Assembly (NCBI RefSeq): GCF_988243305.1
Contig: NZ_OZ547136.1
Direction: 5' to 3' (one strand)
DNA: 64,000 nucleotides
Below the pieces are notes generated by a model. It was not told where the DNA came from, ran no database searches, and saw only the letters and a program-made list of their open reading frames with translations. This document shows positions 1 through 30,115 of this stretch, one piece after another (positions within the stretch are counted from its first letter, which is position 1; each line of letters starts with the position of its first letter). The position numbers and the translations under genes are program-made.

Positions 1-188
1 ATTACGGTAAGGACCTGTGGAGTACTTATCAGACCATCCAGGAGAATATGCTGAAAGGCGGGATTTCCGGTCGCAGTGCAAAAGGAAAACGTATCCACAC
101 CCGTGCCATTCACAGCATCGACACCGATATTAAGCTCAACCGCGCATTGTGGGTAATGGCAGAAACGCTGCTGGAGAGCCTGCGCTGA
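1..188 (+). CDS. C-terminal fragment of an island protein (possibly DUF932 family); 5' end lies outside the window
   Basis: Open frame from window edge to TGA at 186-188; stop overlaps the ATG of the next ORF; position upstream of antirestriction gene as in CP4-type islands. Family assignment is from memory, not verified. Confidence 0.45.
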   Translation, partial: YGKDLWSTYQTIQENMLKGGISGRSAKGKRIHTRAIHSIDTDIKLNRALWVMAETLLESLR

Positions 189-433
189 TGCAGCATGTCC
201 CTGAAGGCGTGATTCAGGCACCAGAATCACCCGACGCCCCGGAGGCGCTGCCGGGGTGTCGTTCCATTTCTGATGATGACCTGTGCGCCTGGTGTACCCG
301 TCTGCTTTACCGTCCCGGAGAAATCAGTCTGTGCAGACTGAGTACAGGCAATGGCATCTGGCCATCCGTCTGTGACCGGAACGGTTACGCGTACGGCTGT
401 CCGGAATTTCAGCCGAATATCATTCATCCCTGA
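188..433 (+). CDS. Small cysteine-rich hypothetical protein (81 aa), possibly DUF905/YkfF-like
   Basis: ATG at 188 overlaps upstream stop (TGATG), suggesting translational coupling; 7 Cys in 81 aa; sits between DUF932-like and antirestriction genes. Confidence 0.45.
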   Translation: MQHVPEGVIQAPESPDAPEALPGCRSISDDDLCAWCTRLLYRPGEISLCRLSTGNGIWPSVCDRNGYAYGCPEFQPNIIHP

Positions 434-526
434 TATTACCGGGTCTCACGGTCAGTGATGAACGTGATGTTGCCAGCTCCCGACCTTTACTCCCTCTCAT
501 TTATTCACATTACAAGGATTTCATAC

Positions 527-1000
527 ATGAAAACATTGTCTCAGAACACCACCTCTTCGGCCTGTGCACCGGAGACTGGCCTGCAACAACTGGTTGCCAC
601 CATAGTCCCTGATGAACAGCGCATCAGCTTCTGGCCGCAGCATTTTGGCCTCATTCCACAGTGGGTGACCCTGGAGCCCCGTGTCTTCGGCTGGATGGAC
701 CGTCTGTGCGAAAACTACTGCGGTGGTATCTGGAATCTGTACACCCTGAACAACGGCGGGGCATTTATGGCCCCTGAACCGGATGACTATGATGACGAAA
801 CATGGGTACTGTTCAATGCCATGAACGGTAACCGCGCTGAAATGAGCCCGGAAGCCGCCGGCATTGCCGCCTGTCTGATGACGTACAGTCATCACGCCTG
901 CCGTACGGAGTGTTATGCCATGACGGTTCATTATTACCGTCTGCGGGATTACGCCCTGCAGCATCCGGAATGCAGCGCCATTATGCGCATTATTGACTGA
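527..1000 (+). CDS. Antirestriction protein, KlcA/ArdB family (YfjX/YafX-like)
   Basis: Translation MKTLSQNTTSSACAPETGLQQLVATIVPDEQRISFWPQHFG... matches my recollection of the K-12 prophage antirestriction paralogs; AAGGA RBS 9 nt upstream of ATG 527. Confidence 0.85.
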   Translation: MKTLSQNTTSSACAPETGLQQLVATIVPDEQRISFWPQHFGLIPQWVTLEPRVFGWMDRLCENYCGGIWNLYTLNNGGAFMAPEPDDYDDETWVLFNAMNGNRAEMSPEAAGIAACLMTYSHHACRTECYAMTVHYYRLRDYALQHPECSAIMRIID

Positions 1001-1015
1001 AAGGGGGCAGGAACA

Positions 1016-1492
1016 ATGCAACAGCTTTCCTTTCTGCCCGGAGAGATGACGCCCGGCGAGCGCAGTCTCATTCTGCGGGCCCTGAAAACCCTGGACCGCC
1101 ATCTTCATGAACCCGGCGTGGCCTTCACCTCCACCCGTGCGGCACGGGAATGGCTGATTCTGAACATGGCGGGACTGGAGCGTGAAGAGTTCCGGGTGCT
1201 GTATCTGAATAACCAGAATCAGCTGATTGCCGGTGAAACCCTCTTCACCGGCACCATCAACCGCACGGAAGTCCATCCCCGGGAAGTGATTAAACGCGCC
1301 CTGTATCACAATGCCGCAGCCGTGGTGCTGGCACACAATCACCCGTCCGGTGAAGTCACCCCCAGTAAGGCAGACCGCCTTATCACGGAACGTCTGGTAC
1401 AGGCACTGGGCCTGGTGGATATCCGGGTGCCGGACCATCTGATAGTCGGTGGCAGCCAGGTTTTCTCCTTTGCCGAACATGGTCTGCTTTAA
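1016..1492 (+). CDS. RadC-like JAB/MPN domain protein (YeeS/YkfG/YfjY family)
   Basis: 158-aa ORF with intact JAMM-type motif HNHPSGEVTPSKAD; conserved position after antirestriction gene. Confidence 0.9.
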   Translation: MQQLSFLPGEMTPGERSLILRALKTLDRHLHEPGVAFTSTRAAREWLILNMAGLEREEFRVLYLNNQNQLIAGETLFTGTINRTEVHPREVIKRALYHNAAAVVLAHNHPSGEVTPSKADRLITERLVQALGLVDIRVPDHLIVGGSQVFSFAEHGLL

Positions 1493-1554
1493 CCCGCCAC
1501 AACCACATCACACCTGTTTTCACTTTTATCTTCTGTCTTCAGAGGTATCCCATT

Positions 1555-1776
1555 ATGAAAATCATCACCCGTGGTGAAGCCATGCGTATTCACCAACAGC
1601 ATCCTGCATCCCGTCTTTTTCCGTTCTGTACCGGCAAATACCGCTGGCACGGCAGCACTGAAACGTATACCGGTCGTGAAGTGCAGGATATTCCCGGTGT
1701 GCTGGCCGTGTTTGCTGAACGCCGTAAGGACAGTTTTGGCCCGTATGTCCGGCTGATGAGCGTCACTCTGAACTGA
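1555..1776 (+). CDS. DUF987 protein (YeeT/YkfH/YpjJ-like)
   Basis: 73-aa translation MKIITRGEAMRIHQQHP...YVRLMSVTLN is near-identical to K-12 YeeT as I recall it. Confidence 0.85.
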   Translation: MKIITRGEAMRIHQQHPASRLFPFCTGKYRWHGSTETYTGREVQDIPGVLAVFAERRKDSFGPYVRLMSVTLN

Positions 1777-1794
1777 GTCAGTAAGGGCATTCTG

Positions 1795-2439
1795 ATGAGC
1801 AGAATTATCACCACCACCGTGTATACACTGCATGAGCTATCCTCCACCGCACAGGAAAAAGCCCGCGACTGGTACCGTCAGCATCATGCTGACAGCAACT
1901 GGTATGAAAACGTGTATGAGGACTTCAGGGAGGTCTGTGGCATTTTCGGAATTGACCTCCGCCAGCGCGTTTTCCGGCTCAGCAACGGCAGGTTTATGGA
2001 AGAGCCGTGCATCTGGTTCAGCGGATTCTGCAGTCAGGGGGACGGAGCCTGTTTTGAAGGGCGCTGGCACTGGCAGCCAGCGACACCCCGGAAAATCAGG
2101 GAATATGCCCCTCAGGACCGTGAGCTTCATCGTATCGCGGATGCCCTGCAGGCGGTACAGAAGCGTAACTTCTGGCAGTTACAGGCTGAAATCAGTCACC
2201 GGGGACGTTACTGCCATCCGTACAGCATGGATATCACCGTCACCCGGAACAGTCCGACTGGTCAGGCACTGACAGCCGATGCGGAAGCCGCTGTCAGCGA
2301 AGCCCTGCGCGACCTGGCCTTCTGGCTGTACCGCCAGCTGGAAAACGAGTACGACTGGCTGACCTCAGACGCCGCTGTAGATGAGGCCATTCACATCAAT
2401 GCATATACCTTCACCGAAGCCGGTCTCCACGCCGGCTGA
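1795..2439 (+). CDS. Hypothetical protein (214 aa), unknown function, inserted between DUF987 gene and cbeA
   Basis: Uninterrupted 645-nt ORF; ATG preceded by AAGGG; Trp/Cys-rich; no family recognised. The K-12 yeeT-cbeA type modules have no gene here. Confidence 0.55.
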   Translation: MSRIITTTVYTLHELSSTAQEKARDWYRQHHADSNWYENVYEDFREVCGIFGIDLRQRVFRLSNGRFMEEPCIWFSGFCSQGDGACFEGRWHWQPATPRKIREYAPQDRELHRIADALQAVQKRNFWQLQAEISHRGRYCHPYSMDITVTRNSPTGQALTADAEAAVSEALRDLAFWLYRQLENEYDWLTSDAAVDEAIHINAYTFTEAGLHAG

Positions 2440-2488
2440 CCTGTCATCGTTAAACTATCATTCACCAATTTTTTGTGAGGATTTGATC

Positions 2489-2866
2489 GTGTCAGACACA
2501 CTCCCCGGGACAACACTTCCCGACGACAATCACGACCGCCCCTGGTGGGGGCTGCCCTGCACCGTGACGCCCTGTTTCGGGGCACGTCTGGTGCAGGAGG
2601 GTAACCGGTTGCATTACCTTGCAGACCGCACCGGTATCAGAGGCCGGTTCAGCAATGCGGATGCATACCATCTGGACCAGGCTTTTCCACTGCTGATGAA
2701 ACAACTGGAACTCATGCTCACCAGCGGTGAACTGAATCCCCGCCATCAGCATACCGTCACGCTGTATGCGAAAGGGCTGACCTGCGAAGCTGATACCCTT
2801 GGCAGTTGTGGTTACGTTTATCTGGCTGTTTATCCGACACCGGCAGCACCCGCAATCACCGTATAA
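2489..2866 (+). CDS. cbeA: Type IV TA antitoxin CbeA (YeeU) homolog
   Basis: GTG start with GTGAGGA RBS; translation VSDTLPGTTLPDDNHDRPWWGLPCTVTPCFGARLVQEGNRLHYLADR... matches K-12 CbeA. Confidence 0.9.
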   Translation: MSDTLPGTTLPDDNHDRPWWGLPCTVTPCFGARLVQEGNRLHYLADRTGIRGRFSNADAYHLDQAFPLLMKQLELMLTSGELNPRHQHTVTLYAKGLTCEADTLGSCGYVYLAVYPTPAAPAITV

Positions 2867-2912
2867 CCCCGGATATCTCCCCTTTATCACCACCTGTTAC
2901 AGAGAACTTAAG

Positions 2913-3287
2913 ATGAATACATTACCCGACACTCACGTACGGGAGGCATCGGGCTGCCCGTCTCCCGTCACCATCTGGCAGACACTGCTCACCCGACTGC
3001 TGGACCAGCACTACGGCCTCACGCTGAATGACACACCGTTCGCTGATGAACGTGTGATTGAGCAGCATATTGAGGCAGGTATTTCACTGTGTGATGCGGT
3101 GAACTTTCTCGTGGAAAAATACGCGCTGGTGCGTACCGACCAGCCGGGATTCAGCGCCTGTACCCGCTCTCAGTTAATAAACAGCATCGATATCCTCCGG
3201 GCTCGCAGGGCGACCGGCCTGATGACCCGCGACAATTACAGAACGGTAAATAACATAACCCTGGGTAAGCATCCGGAGGCGAAATGA
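2913..3287 (+). CDS. cbtA: Type IV TA toxin CbtA (YeeV) homolog, cytoskeleton-targeting
   Basis: 124-aa translation; C-terminal ~100 aa (LLDQHYGLTLNDTPFADERVIEQHIEAGISLCDAVNFLVEKYALVR...) matches K-12 CbtA; N-terminus divergent. Confidence 0.9.
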   Translation: MNTLPDTHVREASGCPSPVTIWQTLLTRLLDQHYGLTLNDTPFADERVIEQHIEAGISLCDAVNFLVEKYALVRTDQPGFSACTRSQLINSIDILRARRATGLMTRDNYRTVNNITLGKHPEAK

Positions 3288-3775
3288 TGAAACTGGCCCT
3301 GACGCTGGAAGCCGACAGCGTTAACGTACAGGCACTGAACATGGGGCGCATTGTCGTTGACGTCGATGGTATTGAGCTTGCTGAACTGATTAACGTGGTC
3401 TGCGATAACGGTCACTCCCTTCGTGTTGTTGATGAATCTGACCGAGCCTCAACAGACTGCACGCCACCATTTGCTGCCCTGACCGGCATACGCTGCAGTA
3501 CCGCGCATATCACGGCAAAAGACAACGCCTGGCTGTACTCGCTGTCGCATCAGACGAATGACACCGGCGAATCAGAATGGATTCATTTTACAGGCAGCGG
3601 ATATCTGTTACGTACCGATGCGTGGTCATACCCGGTTCTGCGGCTTAAACGCCTGGGCCTGTCAAAAACGTTCCGCCGCCTGGTTGTCACACTCATCCGA
3701 CGTTATGGCGTCAGTCTCATTCATCTGGATGCCAGCGCTGAATGCCTGCCGGGTTTACCCACTTTCGACTGGTAA
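3284..3775 (+). CDS. DUF5983 protein (YeeW-like), overlaps cbtA stop
   Basis: ATG at 3284 overlaps cbtA stop (ATGATGA); 163-aa ORF in the conserved position after cbtA. Confidence 0.75.
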   Translation: MMKLALTLEADSVNVQALNMGRIVVDVDGIELAELINVVCDNGHSLRVVDESDRASTDCTPPFAALTGIRCSTAHITAKDNAWLYSLSHQTNDTGESEWIHFTGSGYLLRTDAWSYPVLRLKRLGLSKTFRRLVVTLIRRYGVSLIHLDASAECLPGLPTFDW

Positions 3776-3777
3776 CC

Positions 3778-3984
3778 ATGAACAACATGAAATCATTAAC
3801 CACGGAAACCGCACTGGATATTCTGATTGCGTGGCTGCAGGACAATATCGACTGCGAATCGGGAATTATCTTTGACAACGATGAGGATAAAACAGATTCG
3901 GCAGCACTGTTGCCCTGTATCGAACAGGCCAGGGAGGGTATCCGTACCCTGTGCCAACTGCAGCTTCTGCACCAGAACCGATGA
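3778..3984 (+). CDS. Small acidic hypothetical protein (68 aa), possibly DUF957-like
   Basis: ATG 2 nt after the previous stop; acidic DNDEDK stretch; family assignment from memory only. Confidence 0.5.
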   Translation: MNNMKSLTTETALDILIAWLQDNIDCESGIIFDNDEDKTDSAALLPCIEQAREGIRTLCQLQLLHQNR

Positions 3985-4073
3985 GTCTTACTCATTCACT
4001 CACCAGACTTCATTCCAATGACGTCAGCCTGAACAGGGCTGGCGTTTTCGTTTATAAACCAAAAGGAAAAACG

Positions 4074-4919
4074 ATGATGTCAGATATCACAATCTCCCGC
4101 CTGGAAGTGGTCAACGGACATACGGACATTATCTGCTCCACCTCAGTCAGCCACATTCTGGCTGTGCGAAAGACTACACTGCTGCAAATCGACACACTTA
4201 TCCGGCAACTGACTGAAATATCAGCAATGACAGAAAGTATTGGCGGTAAAACCGCACTGGACTGGGCCATGAAACAGGATTTTCGCTGCGGCTGCTGGCT
4301 CATGGATAAACCTGATACAGCAATGAAAGCTATCACCCGCAATCTCGATCGCGAAATCTGGCGTGACCTGATGCAATGCTCCGGGATGCTTTCCTTAATG
4401 GATGCACAGGCCCGTGATACATGGTACCGATCACTGGAGTACGATAATTTTCCGGAAATCAGTGAAGAGAATATTCTGAGTACGTTTGAGCAGCTACACC
4501 AGAATAAGGATGAAGTGTTTGAGCGAGGAGTGATCAACCTCTTCAGAGGGTTGAGCTGGAATTACAAAACCAATTGCCCCTGTAAATTTGGCAATAAAAT
4601 TATCGTCAACAATCTGGTGAGGTGGGACCGGTGGGGATTGCATCTTATCACCGGGCAACAGGCAGATAGACTTGCCGACCTGGAAAGAATGCTGCATCTG
4701 TTCAGCGGCAAACCGATCCCCGACAACAGGGAAAACATAACTATTCATCTGGACGAACATATCCGGTCTCTTCAGGGAAAAGAATGCTATGAAGATGAGA
4801 TGTTCATTATTAAATACTTTAAGAAGGGCTCTGCGCACATCACGTTCAGGAAGCCAGAACTGGTTGACAGACTGAATGATATTATCGCAAAACACTATCC
4901 TGATATGCTGGCAGTATAG
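4074..4919 (+). CDS. Hypothetical protein (281 aa), island cargo next to serX; possibly DUF4942-like
   Basis: AAGGAAAA RBS before ATG 4074; long ORF with lower GC than core; no catalytic motif recognised. Confidence 0.6.
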   Translation: MMSDITISRLEVVNGHTDIICSTSVSHILAVRKTTLLQIDTLIRQLTEISAMTESIGGKTALDWAMKQDFRCGCWLMDKPDTAMKAITRNLDREIWRDLMQCSGMLSLMDAQARDTWYRSLEYDNFPEISEENILSTFEQLHQNKDEVFERGVINLFRGLSWNYKTNCPCKFGNKIIVNNLVRWDRWGLHLITGQQADRLADLERMLHLFSGKPIPDNRENITIHLDEHIRSLQGKECYEDEMFIIKYFKKGSAHITFRKPELVDRLNDIIAKHYPDMLAV

Positions 4920-5026
4920 CTTTGCCAGTATGCTCAAAGATCGGAAATTGTCCGATAAGATATGATCGTGGGGCATATAAACCGGTTTCAGATGGCATAC
5001 CCGGTGGCATACTGTCTGGAAGGATA

Positions 5027-5060
5027 AATAAAAAAGCGCATGTTAAACAATAACATGCGC
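5027..5060 (-). terminator. Rho-independent terminator of serX
   Basis: Perfect 10-bp inverted repeat GCGCATGTTA/TAACATGCGC with 5-nt loop, followed on the minus strand by a T-tract, just downstream of the tRNA 3' end. Confidence 0.7.
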
Positions 5061-5068
5061 TTGTAATC

Positions 5069-5156
5069 TGGCGGTGAGGGGGGGATTCGAACCCCCGATA
5101 CGTTGCCGTATACACACTTTCCAGGCGTGCTCCTTCAGCCACTCGGACACCTCACC
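5069..5156 (-). tRNA. serX: tRNA-Ser (GGA), serX
   Basis: Reverse complement reads GGTGAGGTGTCCGAGTGGCTGAAGGAGCACGCCTGGAAAGTGTGTATACGGCAACGTATCGGGGGTTCGAATCCCCCCCTCACCGCCA: 88 nt, long variable arm, CCA end. Confidence 0.95.
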
Positions 5157-5350
5157 AAATTGTTGTTCCTGTCTTGCTGGAACGGGCGCTAATTTAGGGA
5201 AATCATGACCTGAGGTCAACAAACTTTTTTAAAAAATCGCGCGTTTATTCAAACTTCAATCAATATGCAGTTTTAATAAGCGAAATCTGCTTTTTTTGCC
5301 ACCGACCACGGATTTGTTATGCTGGTGGCTTTTGTAGATCATAACGATAA

Positions 5351-6328
<978 letters not shown>

Positions 6329-29068: not shown

Positions 29069-30115
29069 TTATTGTTTAACGGACCAGCGTACCGTTTCTC
29101 CGGCGAGGAATGGCACCAGCGTGTCATCAGTCAGTGCGATGCTTTCAGCAACCTGTTGCTCTTCACGTACCAGTTCGATGAATGTGTCGTTGACCGGCAA
29201 GCCATAGAACTGCGGGCCGTTTACAGAACAGAATGCTTCAAAGTGCTGCAGAGCATTCATCTCTTCAAAGACGGTAGCGTAACTGCCCAGCGCGGTTGGG
29301 GCATTGAAGCAGCCCGCGCAGCCGCAGCTACTCTCTTTGCGATGACGTGCATGCGGCGCAGAATCCGTACCGAGGAATACGCGATTAAAACCGCTGGCGA
29401 CTAGTTCACGCAATGCCTGTTGGTGAATATTGCGTTTGAGGATGGGTAGACAATACAGATGTGGACGCACGCCACCAACCAGCATATGGTTGCGGTTAAA
29501 CATCAGATGCTGCGGAGTGATGGTGGCAGCCAGCCGTTCATTTCCGTTACGGACATAGTCGGCAGCATCTTTGGTGGTGATGTGCTCAAAAACGACTTTC
29601 AGCGCAGTCAGGCGCTGGCGCAGCGGTTCCATCACGCTTTCAATAAAGCGCGCTTCACGATCAAAAATGTCGATATCTGCATGTGTCACTTCACCATGCA
29701 CCAGTAACGGCATACCGATTTTTTCCATGCGCTCAAGTACCGGCATGATTGCGTCAACTGACGTCACGCCGTGACTGGAGTTAGTGGTTGCGTTTGCCGG
29801 GTAAAGTTTGGCAGCGGTGAACACGCCTTCGTTAAATCCACGCTCAAGCTCATTAGGGTCTAGTGAATCTGTCAAATAACAGGTCATCAGCGGGGTGAAA
29901 TCGTGCCCGGCAGGTACGGCGTCAAGAATACGCTGGCGATAAGCCACGGCAGCCTCAACGGTGGTCACGGGCGGAGCCAGATTGGGCATTACGATAGCCC
30001 GTCCATAAATTTCGCTGGTATACGGCACGACAGTTTTTAACATGTCGCCATCGCGGAGGTGAAGGTGCCAGTCGTCTGGGCGGCGGATCTTTAATACCTG
30101 GGATGGTGCAGTCAT
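29069..30115 (-). CDS. pyrC: Dihydroorotase PyrC
   Basis: 348 aa; N-terminal [10 protein letters not shown] metal-binding motif. Confidence 0.95.

Follow-up and report, generated by a model that had tools for sequence, protein, structure and literature searches.

The gene at positions 4074-4919 of the DNA analysed here, a stretch of 64,000 nucleotides (nt) from contig NZ_OZ547136.1 (RefSeq assembly GCF_988243305.1) which is called the window in the following, codes for a stand-alone protein of the DUF4942 family. It belongs to a conserved backbone module at the attachment (att) site of a chromosomal island next to the tRNA gene serX, and its relatives form a characteristic family of the leading regions of conjugative plasmids. 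The role which appears most likely, although it can be put forward only tentatively, is that of a non-catalytic recognition or adaptor protein which would help a mobile element to establish itself or to resist restriction, since the domain is the sole non-catalytic part of certain methyltransferases, the plasmid genes keep the company of other leading-region genes and strong hairpins precede the copies on IncI and IncFII plasmids.

An earlier reading of the letters alone (the sequence-only reading) had reported an open reading frame (ORF) of 281 amino acids (aa) at this place and had tentatively suggested a family named DUF4942. Both statements hold. The list of ORFs and the raw sequence agree on an intact frame, whose stop codon occupies positions 4917-4919 (plus strand), and the full Pfam model PF13708 (positions 1-190 of 190) matches residues 88-277 with a score of 235.9 (E = 3.8e-70). 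The gene and the elements directly upstream are:

4074..4919, plus strand: gene of the DUF4942 family, 281 aa when started at ATG 4074, 280 aa when started at ATG 4077 (RefSeq start); Pfam domain at residues 88-277
4063..4069, plus strand: Shine-Dalgarno-like AAGGAAA 5' of both candidate starts, from reading the sequence
4020..4046, plus strand: short G+C-rich hairpin with a T-rich tail in the 89-nt spacer between the DUF957 and DUF4942 genes; a match to the terminator/attenuator consensus only, with a fold as single-stranded DNA (ssDNA) that is not significant (z = -1.7)

At 100 % identity, the gene corresponds to that of WP_001280460.1 (280 aa, "DUF4942 domain-containing protein") from the avian pathogenic Escherichia coli (APEC) strain PSUO2, for which RefSeq places the start at the second in-frame ATG, 4077. 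This is more likely to be the true start than 4074, because the position of the first ATG reads ATA in one other copy of the serX island. A scan for the sigma-70 consensus revealed no promoter for the window gene, and a tRNA was the sole Rfam match in window positions 1-6000. Pairwise comparison of six chromosomal copies gave ratios of nonsynonymous to synonymous substitution rates (dN/dS) of 0.10-0.19 at dS values of 0.19-0.67, so that these copies are clearly under purifying selection. Together with the Pfam match and the 2097 clusters of homologues (50 % identity, E<=0.001), mostly stand-alone proteins of 255-300 aa, this confirms a real gene, far beyond chance. The G+C content of 46.5 % lies below that of the core part of the window (50.7 %), as the sequence-only reading had noticed; the 68-aa ORF upstream has 48.8 % and the other genes of the module 54-58 %.

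The window protein is a typical member of its family: it matches the hidden Markov model over the full length, contains all invariant residues, has the stand-alone form of 260-290 aa and takes the same terminal place in tRNA-associated islands, and no substantive difference was found. Across 104 diverse full-length homologues, the query among them, five residues never vary (W96, G152, D202, H255 and N268); they were recognised by eye also in the relatives fused to methyltransferases. Structure prediction followed by a fold search, which the sequence-only reading had named as a check, was carried out. The AlphaFold2 model, built on the alignment of the 104 sequences, is confident (mean predicted local distance difference test 87.7, predicted template modelling score 0.81) and consists of a disordered N-terminus (1-17), one long helix (residues 25-55), a bundle of helices (80-160) and two C-terminal beta-beta-beta-alpha units (175-274). 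The fold search found no relative of this model in PDB or AFDB beyond the DUF4942 family. Pfam scans of the query and of the 104 homologues showed neither a helix-turn-helix (HTH) nor a relaxase-accessory or Xis-like domain, nor a second domain in any of the aligned homologues, and NCBIfam holds no model for the protein or for its small neighbours. Weak matches to Gal/GalNAc lectins in the PDB (E = 0.003 over a 39-residue stretch) were discarded as chance; the family profile gave 0 hits.

Legacy labels of DUF4942 proteins read "restriction methylase" or "restriction endonuclease subunit M". Pattern searches of the window protein found no motif I (the loop binding S-adenosylmethionine, SAM), no motif IV ((D/N/S)PP(Y/F/W/H)) and no GxG anywhere. 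As controls, both motifs were found in the metagenomic protein P0062 and in SSU5_095, and phiPSA1 gp22 gave motif IV by pattern and motif I (CLEPSAGMG) by eye. The AlphaFold2 model of the window protein lacks the Rossmann fold which would be expected of a class I SAM methyltransferase. Since SAM loop, (D/N/S)PP(Y/F) and Rossmann fold are all missing, it is firmly shown that the protein is not a methyltransferase and that the legacy names are wrong for it.

In a minority of relatives the domain is located N-terminally in a longer protein, whose C-terminal ~180-260 residues contain the core of a class I methyltransferase, showing first motif I and then NPPF or NPPY. VLEPSAGxG and NPPF are present in the metagenomic proteins P0062, P0105, P0113 and P0120 (460-468 aa), and NPPY in gp095 of Salmonella phage SSU5 (561 aa) and gp22 of Pseudomonas phage phiPSA1 (543 aa); a further fused case is PHROG 6263 (phrog_6263), named 'DNA methyltransferase'. 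The SSU5, phiPSA1 and ~465-aa metagenomic proteins, orphan enzymes, have the DUF4942 module in common with the window protein, with W, G, D, H and N at the invariant positions, and lie on mobile elements as well, often near an integrase or other early genes. However, they run on into the class I SAM core, whereas the window protein ends where their catalytic domain starts. The fused catalytic cores match models of DNA, rRNA and protein amino-methyltransferases equally weakly, so that these matches do not even distinguish between substrate classes. Their catalytic part is too short for a separate target-recognition domain, and for this reason the architecture makes DUF4942 the sole candidate for substrate recognition in them. 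An analogy of mechanism only is provided by HsdS of Type I systems, a recognition module without catalysis which is fused to a methyltransferase in other systems; no relationship of fold or sequence between HsdS and DUF4942 was detected, and no partner methyltransferase is encoded near DUF4942.

A stand-alone DUF4942 homologue was found by tblastn in 4868 of 72,556 plasmids, 4008 of them (82 %) typed as conjugative, and in just 44 of 50,697 phage records. Its place in three plasmid groups is as follows:

IncI: ssb, DUF905, ParB, psiB, psiA, ardA, further genes, DUF4942, mobC, nikA/nikB; DUF4942 is the leading-region gene closest to the transfer origin (oriT)
IncFII: DUF4942 between psiA and the antirestriction and SLT genes which precede traM
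pOXA-48 and a relative (IncL/M): DUF4942 between a RadC/JAB gene and Hha, DUF1380, antirestriction and ssb genes, all upstream of mobA-traI

A published survey of leading regions (Samuel et al., Nature 2024, PMC11541004) contains DUF4942 as family 24 of its Supplementary Table 1, "Uncharacterized; DUF4942; Methyltransferase", with 2171 members (false discovery rate p = 0), T-strand orientation and a median position, counted from oriT, of 1. Rank 76 there belongs to a second DUF4942 family with a median position of 6, and further members of the island module are listed with DUF905 (family 2), DUF932/YafZ/YubP (family 3) and KlcA (family 9). The comparison of that study with anti-restriction proteins by Foldseek and DIAMOND states 'NA' for all 2171 DUF4942 members (PMC11541004). 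DUF4942 is thus firmly shown to be a characteristic leading-region family of conjugative plasmids. The placement in a leading region applies to the plasmid homologues and not to the window copy, which is part of a chromosomal, integrase-borne island. Gene and family were already catalogued and the leading-region enrichment was already published, and the window copy adds nothing distinctive to this.

Metagenomic copies were found in an IncP-like KorA-IncC-KorB context followed by DUF4942 and a C5 methylase, in a region with primase and RadC, at a prophage end by an integrase, in a locus with two N6/N4 methylases and, in the fused form, next to a SprT-like gene. Among characterised proteins, ArdA and KlcA/ArdB share the genomic company of DUF4942: a KlcA/ArdB gene is part of the island module, and ardA or klcA occur in plasmid leading regions, where they have the same orientation as DUF4942 and, on plasmids of the IncI and IncFII groups, an ssDNA hairpin of similar kind upstream. 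In contrast, no similarity of sequence or fold was found between DUF4942 and ArdA/Ocr or ArdB/KlcA, and DUF4942 is not an acidic DNA mimic.

For the hairpins, a described criterion was applied (windows of 300 nt, energy parameters for DNA, about -75 kcal/mol or stronger; PMC12672017) to the template strand of the IncI and IncFII leading regions, of pOXA-48 and of ~10 kb of an island (L001 11000-21300, module and upstream flank). The IncI region has hairpins 5' of ardA (-86 kcal/mol), of a hypothetical gene (-93 kcal/mol) and of DUF4942 (-87 kcal/mol). The whole 353-nt spacer 5' of this DUF4942 gene, on plasmid pEC27-3 (NZ_CP060875.1, L011 8581-8965), folds with -91.3 kcal/mol (z = -7.1; 0 of 100 shuffled sequences as strong), as strongly as the ardA hairpin there, and may provide the oriT-proximal gene with an ssDNA promoter. 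For ardA, a study of pESBL has described a promoter of this type upstream of the gene. IncFII hairpins lie 5' of ssb (-94 kcal/mol), of the antirestriction gene (-81 kcal/mol) and at the head of a three-gene operon ending in DUF4942 (-84 kcal/mol). Some plasmid copies therefore look, from their sequence, as if built for expression from the entering single strand, whereas the island copy, with no such hairpin in the scan, does not.

On the chromosome the gene is the last member of a module of constant order: DUF932, antirestriction (KlcA/ArdB type), RadC/JAB, DUF987, an optional gene of 214 aa, YeeU, CbtA, DUF5983, DUF957 and DUF4942. In the window the genes upstream of DUF4942 are:

3..188, plus strand: DUF932 gene, of which the window start leaves only the 3' end (from annotation)
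527..1000, plus strand: antirestriction gene, annotated just as 'antirestriction protein'; KlcA/ArdB type is the reading given here
1016..1492, plus strand: RadC/JAB-domain gene
1555..1776, plus strand: DUF987 (YeeT-like) gene
1795..2439, plus strand: hypothetical gene of 214 aa, variably present in the module
2489..2866, plus strand: antitoxin gene of the YeeU/CbeA family, with a likely GTG start
2913..3287, plus strand: toxin gene of the CbtA family
3284..3775, plus strand: DUF5983 (YeeW-like) gene
3778..3984, plus strand: DUF957 gene, 68 aa (65 aa from the RefSeq start at 3787)

The small ORF of 68 aa which the sequence-only reading had placed upstream thus exists and codes for a DUF957 protein, the constant upstream neighbour of DUF4942 in chromosomal islands, which is absent from the plasmid contexts examined. 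Six chromosomal loci were opened, at serX in three strains, beside setC on the distal side of selC islands (two) and next to yghD/gsp (one). DUF4942 ends the module in five of them, and the sixth (L014) retains only DUF4942. Megablast detected the gene in 3777 of 5426 complete E. coli genomes (median one copy, maximum seven), a number which is a lower bound because of the roughly 85 % identity that this program needs. It is thus firmly shown that the gene is part of a conserved, att-proximal backbone module. Of the earlier interpretation, the suggested family and the position at the island edge stand, while the idea of a variable cargo slot finds no support; the variable slot of the module is the 214-aa ORF and not the position of DUF4942.

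The end of the island is formed by the following features:

5069..5156, minus strand: tRNA-Ser(GGA), serX, with its 3' end toward the DUF4942 gene (ARAGORN and Rfam)
4920..5064, no strand: island-specific non-coding end; the boundary of chromosome and island lies at 5065-5069, matches to empty sites beginning at query position 446 or 450
5034..5062, minus strand: terminator hairpin and T-run just downstream of serX, consisting of island DNA
5069..5082, no strand: 14-nt att core tggcggtgaggggg, the 3' end of the serX acceptor, repeated at the far island end in PSUO2

As the genes beyond the tRNA are ghrA, ycdX, ycdY, ycdZ and csgG, it is serX of E. coli. DUF4942 is indeed the last island gene before it, as the sequence-only reading had it: the stop codon is 149 nt away from serX, whose 3' end faces the gene, and no feature is annotated in between. 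The junction DUF4942-serX-ghrA is present in 1172 genomes; elsewhere the match starts at window position 5065-5069. Because these genomes share the junction, while the unoccupied sites (three genomes sampled) are either empty with the order dgcT-serX-ghrA (two) or have the K-12 arrangement (one), the presence of DUF4942 at serX tracks the presence of the island and does not, as had been supposed, point to an independent cargo slot, although rare alternatives may exist.

In PSUO2 the 14-nt acceptor repeat tggcggtgaggggg recurs at a distance of ~63 kb, where it adjoins a tyrosine integrase neighbouring dgcT, and the island between the repeats contains sfa, iro, Ag43 and insertion sequence (IS) elements. 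Alignment of the DNA beyond the stop codon revealed a copy of the selC 3' end behind the selC-side copies of DUF4942 and, behind the yghD-side copy, the 3' end of a pheV-type tRNA gene; these tRNA 3' ends are the distal att repeats. In every island case DUF4942 therefore flanks the attachment site opposite the integrase.

According to the proposal favoured here, a newly arrived mobile element would be helped to establish itself by a DUF4942 protein which binds either the incoming DNA or a component of host restriction/modification and so blunts restriction. The domain would act in this way as what it appears to be in the phage and phage-plasmid amino-methyltransferases of ~465-560 aa, namely their only non-catalytic part in the lack of any other target-recognition domain. 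The stand-alone form on conjugative plasmids is a leading-region gene among ardA, klcA, ssb and psiB. The island copy appears to be a retained, still selected member of this establishment module, probably expressed from ordinary promoters. A more specific version is possible but doubtful: stand-alone DUF4942 proteins might constitute a new establishment or anti-restriction class of unclassified fold, the recognition half of an orphan methyltransferase without the catalytic half, which occludes or marks incoming DNA or captures a host restriction/modification subunit, is made first on entry in IncI and IncF plasmids and is kept under selection in the att-proximal position of most E. coli islands.

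Several observations weigh against an establishment role. In the island, energies in the scanned region go no lower than -65.8 kcal/mol, with nothing notable around DUF4942, where the spacer contains only the 27-nt hairpin, and no strong hairpin was found near the copy of pOXA-48. The text of the RNA-seq paper on early conjugation of pESBL does not name a DUF4942 gene among the induced genes. No relaxase is annotated in the regions of the PSUO2 island that were read, in which oriT was not searched for. A methyltransferase gene does not consistently accompany stand-alone homologues, and none is present in the E. coli module. With an isoelectric point (pI) of 6.0 and a net charge of -4.7 (family median pI 7.3), the protein is neither strongly basic like many DNA binders nor strongly acidic like DNA mimics. 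A literature search found no experiment on any member of the family.

The family ranks among the most abundant uncharacterised ones of enterobacterial mobile elements. About 70 % of complete E. coli genomes have it, and so do about 7 % of sequenced plasmids, among them the resistance plasmids pOXA-48, IncI and IncFII; by size it takes 24th place among the families enriched in leading regions of plasmids. If it is an establishment or anti-restriction factor, this would bear on the survival of resistance plasmids and pathogenicity islands which enter new hosts. The window copy offers no handle on function beyond that of thousands of other copies.

Among the alternatives, a DNA-processing accessory of the element, active in the directionality of excision and integration, at the relaxosome or oriT, or in second-strand synthesis instead of counter-defence, is unlikely but has the best standing. 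It would account for the place beside the att repeat opposite the integrase in islands, for the oriT-proximal position in IncI plasmids and the median position 1 from oriT (PMC11541004), and for the neighbouring integrase in a prophage. However, DUF4942 is several kb and several genes away from oriT in IncFII and IncL/M plasmids, the second family has a median position of 6, none of the HTH, relaxase-accessory or Xis-like domains was detected, and fusion to methyltransferase domains is unexpected for an excision or relaxosome factor.

That DUF4942 acts together with DUF5983 and DUF957 as accessory or regulator of the CbtA/YeeU toxin-antitoxin cassette is less likely still. Five of the six chromosomal loci show the constant order YeeU, CbtA, DUF5983, DUF957, DUF4942, and the sixth, L014, has kept nothing of the module but DUF4942. 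Against this, thousands of plasmid copies as well as the metagenomic and prophage copies have no CbtA, YeeU, DUF5983 or DUF957 nearby, and the small ORF 5' of the pOXA-48 copy is unrelated to DUF957. Moreover, at one selC-side locus McrBC has replaced all of the module but DUF4942.

Island ends near tRNA genes often house defence genes, and McrBC adjoins one DUF4942 copy, so that cargo for anti-phage defence in an island-edge hotspot could be considered. This is improbable, as DUF4942 is a backbone and not a variable gene, a single gene without an effector-like domain, and has its plasmid homologues in leading regions, the usual gathering place of anti-defence and not of defence genes; a search of PADLOC-DB v2 gave 0 families even at E<=1 for the DUF4942, DUF957, DUF5983 and 214-aa proteins. 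A genuine DNA methyltransferase or a decaying remnant of one, as old database names and the fusion of distant relatives to methyltransferase domains would have it, is very improbable for a protein with no motif I, motif IV or GxG and a confident model without Rossmann fold, which stops at the point from which the fused proteins go on into their catalytic domain, the more so as decay is at variance with purifying selection and with the large majority of close relatives being stand-alone.

Some further observations concern the module. In E. coli FORC_081, at the selC-distal end (L014 1885-6846), McrBC lies directly upstream of DUF4942 and the rest of the module is gone. The 214-aa ORF (1795-2439, plus strand) has no match in Pfam or NCBIfam and only one to PHROG 5162 (unknown function); it is present in the window, PSUO2 and L015 and absent from the same module in L004, L005 and L013. 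Most of the 338-nt spacer between the DUF932 and antirestriction genes (190-530) is filled by an unannotated, cysteine-rich ORF of 94 aa (149-433, plus strand); folding of this spacer as ssDNA is modest (-59.6 kcal/mol, z = -2.5). The window and PSUO2 have identical DUF4942 genes, yet small indels and substitutions set them apart in the surroundings of the YeeU antitoxin gene (2440-2900), which suggests mosaic recombination among copies of the module.

Others concern the attachment sites. Compared with the selC and pheV-type islands, the serX island has reversed polarity: it is DUF4942 that borders on the intact tRNA gene, and the integrase lies at the far end. There the original terminator hairpin of serX is preserved (L016 43280-43350), and therefore the hairpin which follows serX in island-bearing strains (5034-5062) comes from island DNA. 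In K-12-type strains, as read in ER1709 of the K-12 lineage, the place beside serX which the island occupies in the window is taken by three tandem repeats annotated as 'RtT sRNA' and by ycdU (L023 3464-3960). Finally, the 105-kb E. coli plasmid NZ_AP027855.1 carries at 29534-29590 a 57-nt copy of the serX/serW 3' part (98 % identical, annotated as 'tRNA-OTHER'), which could be the copy of an attachment site on a plasmid or phage-plasmid.
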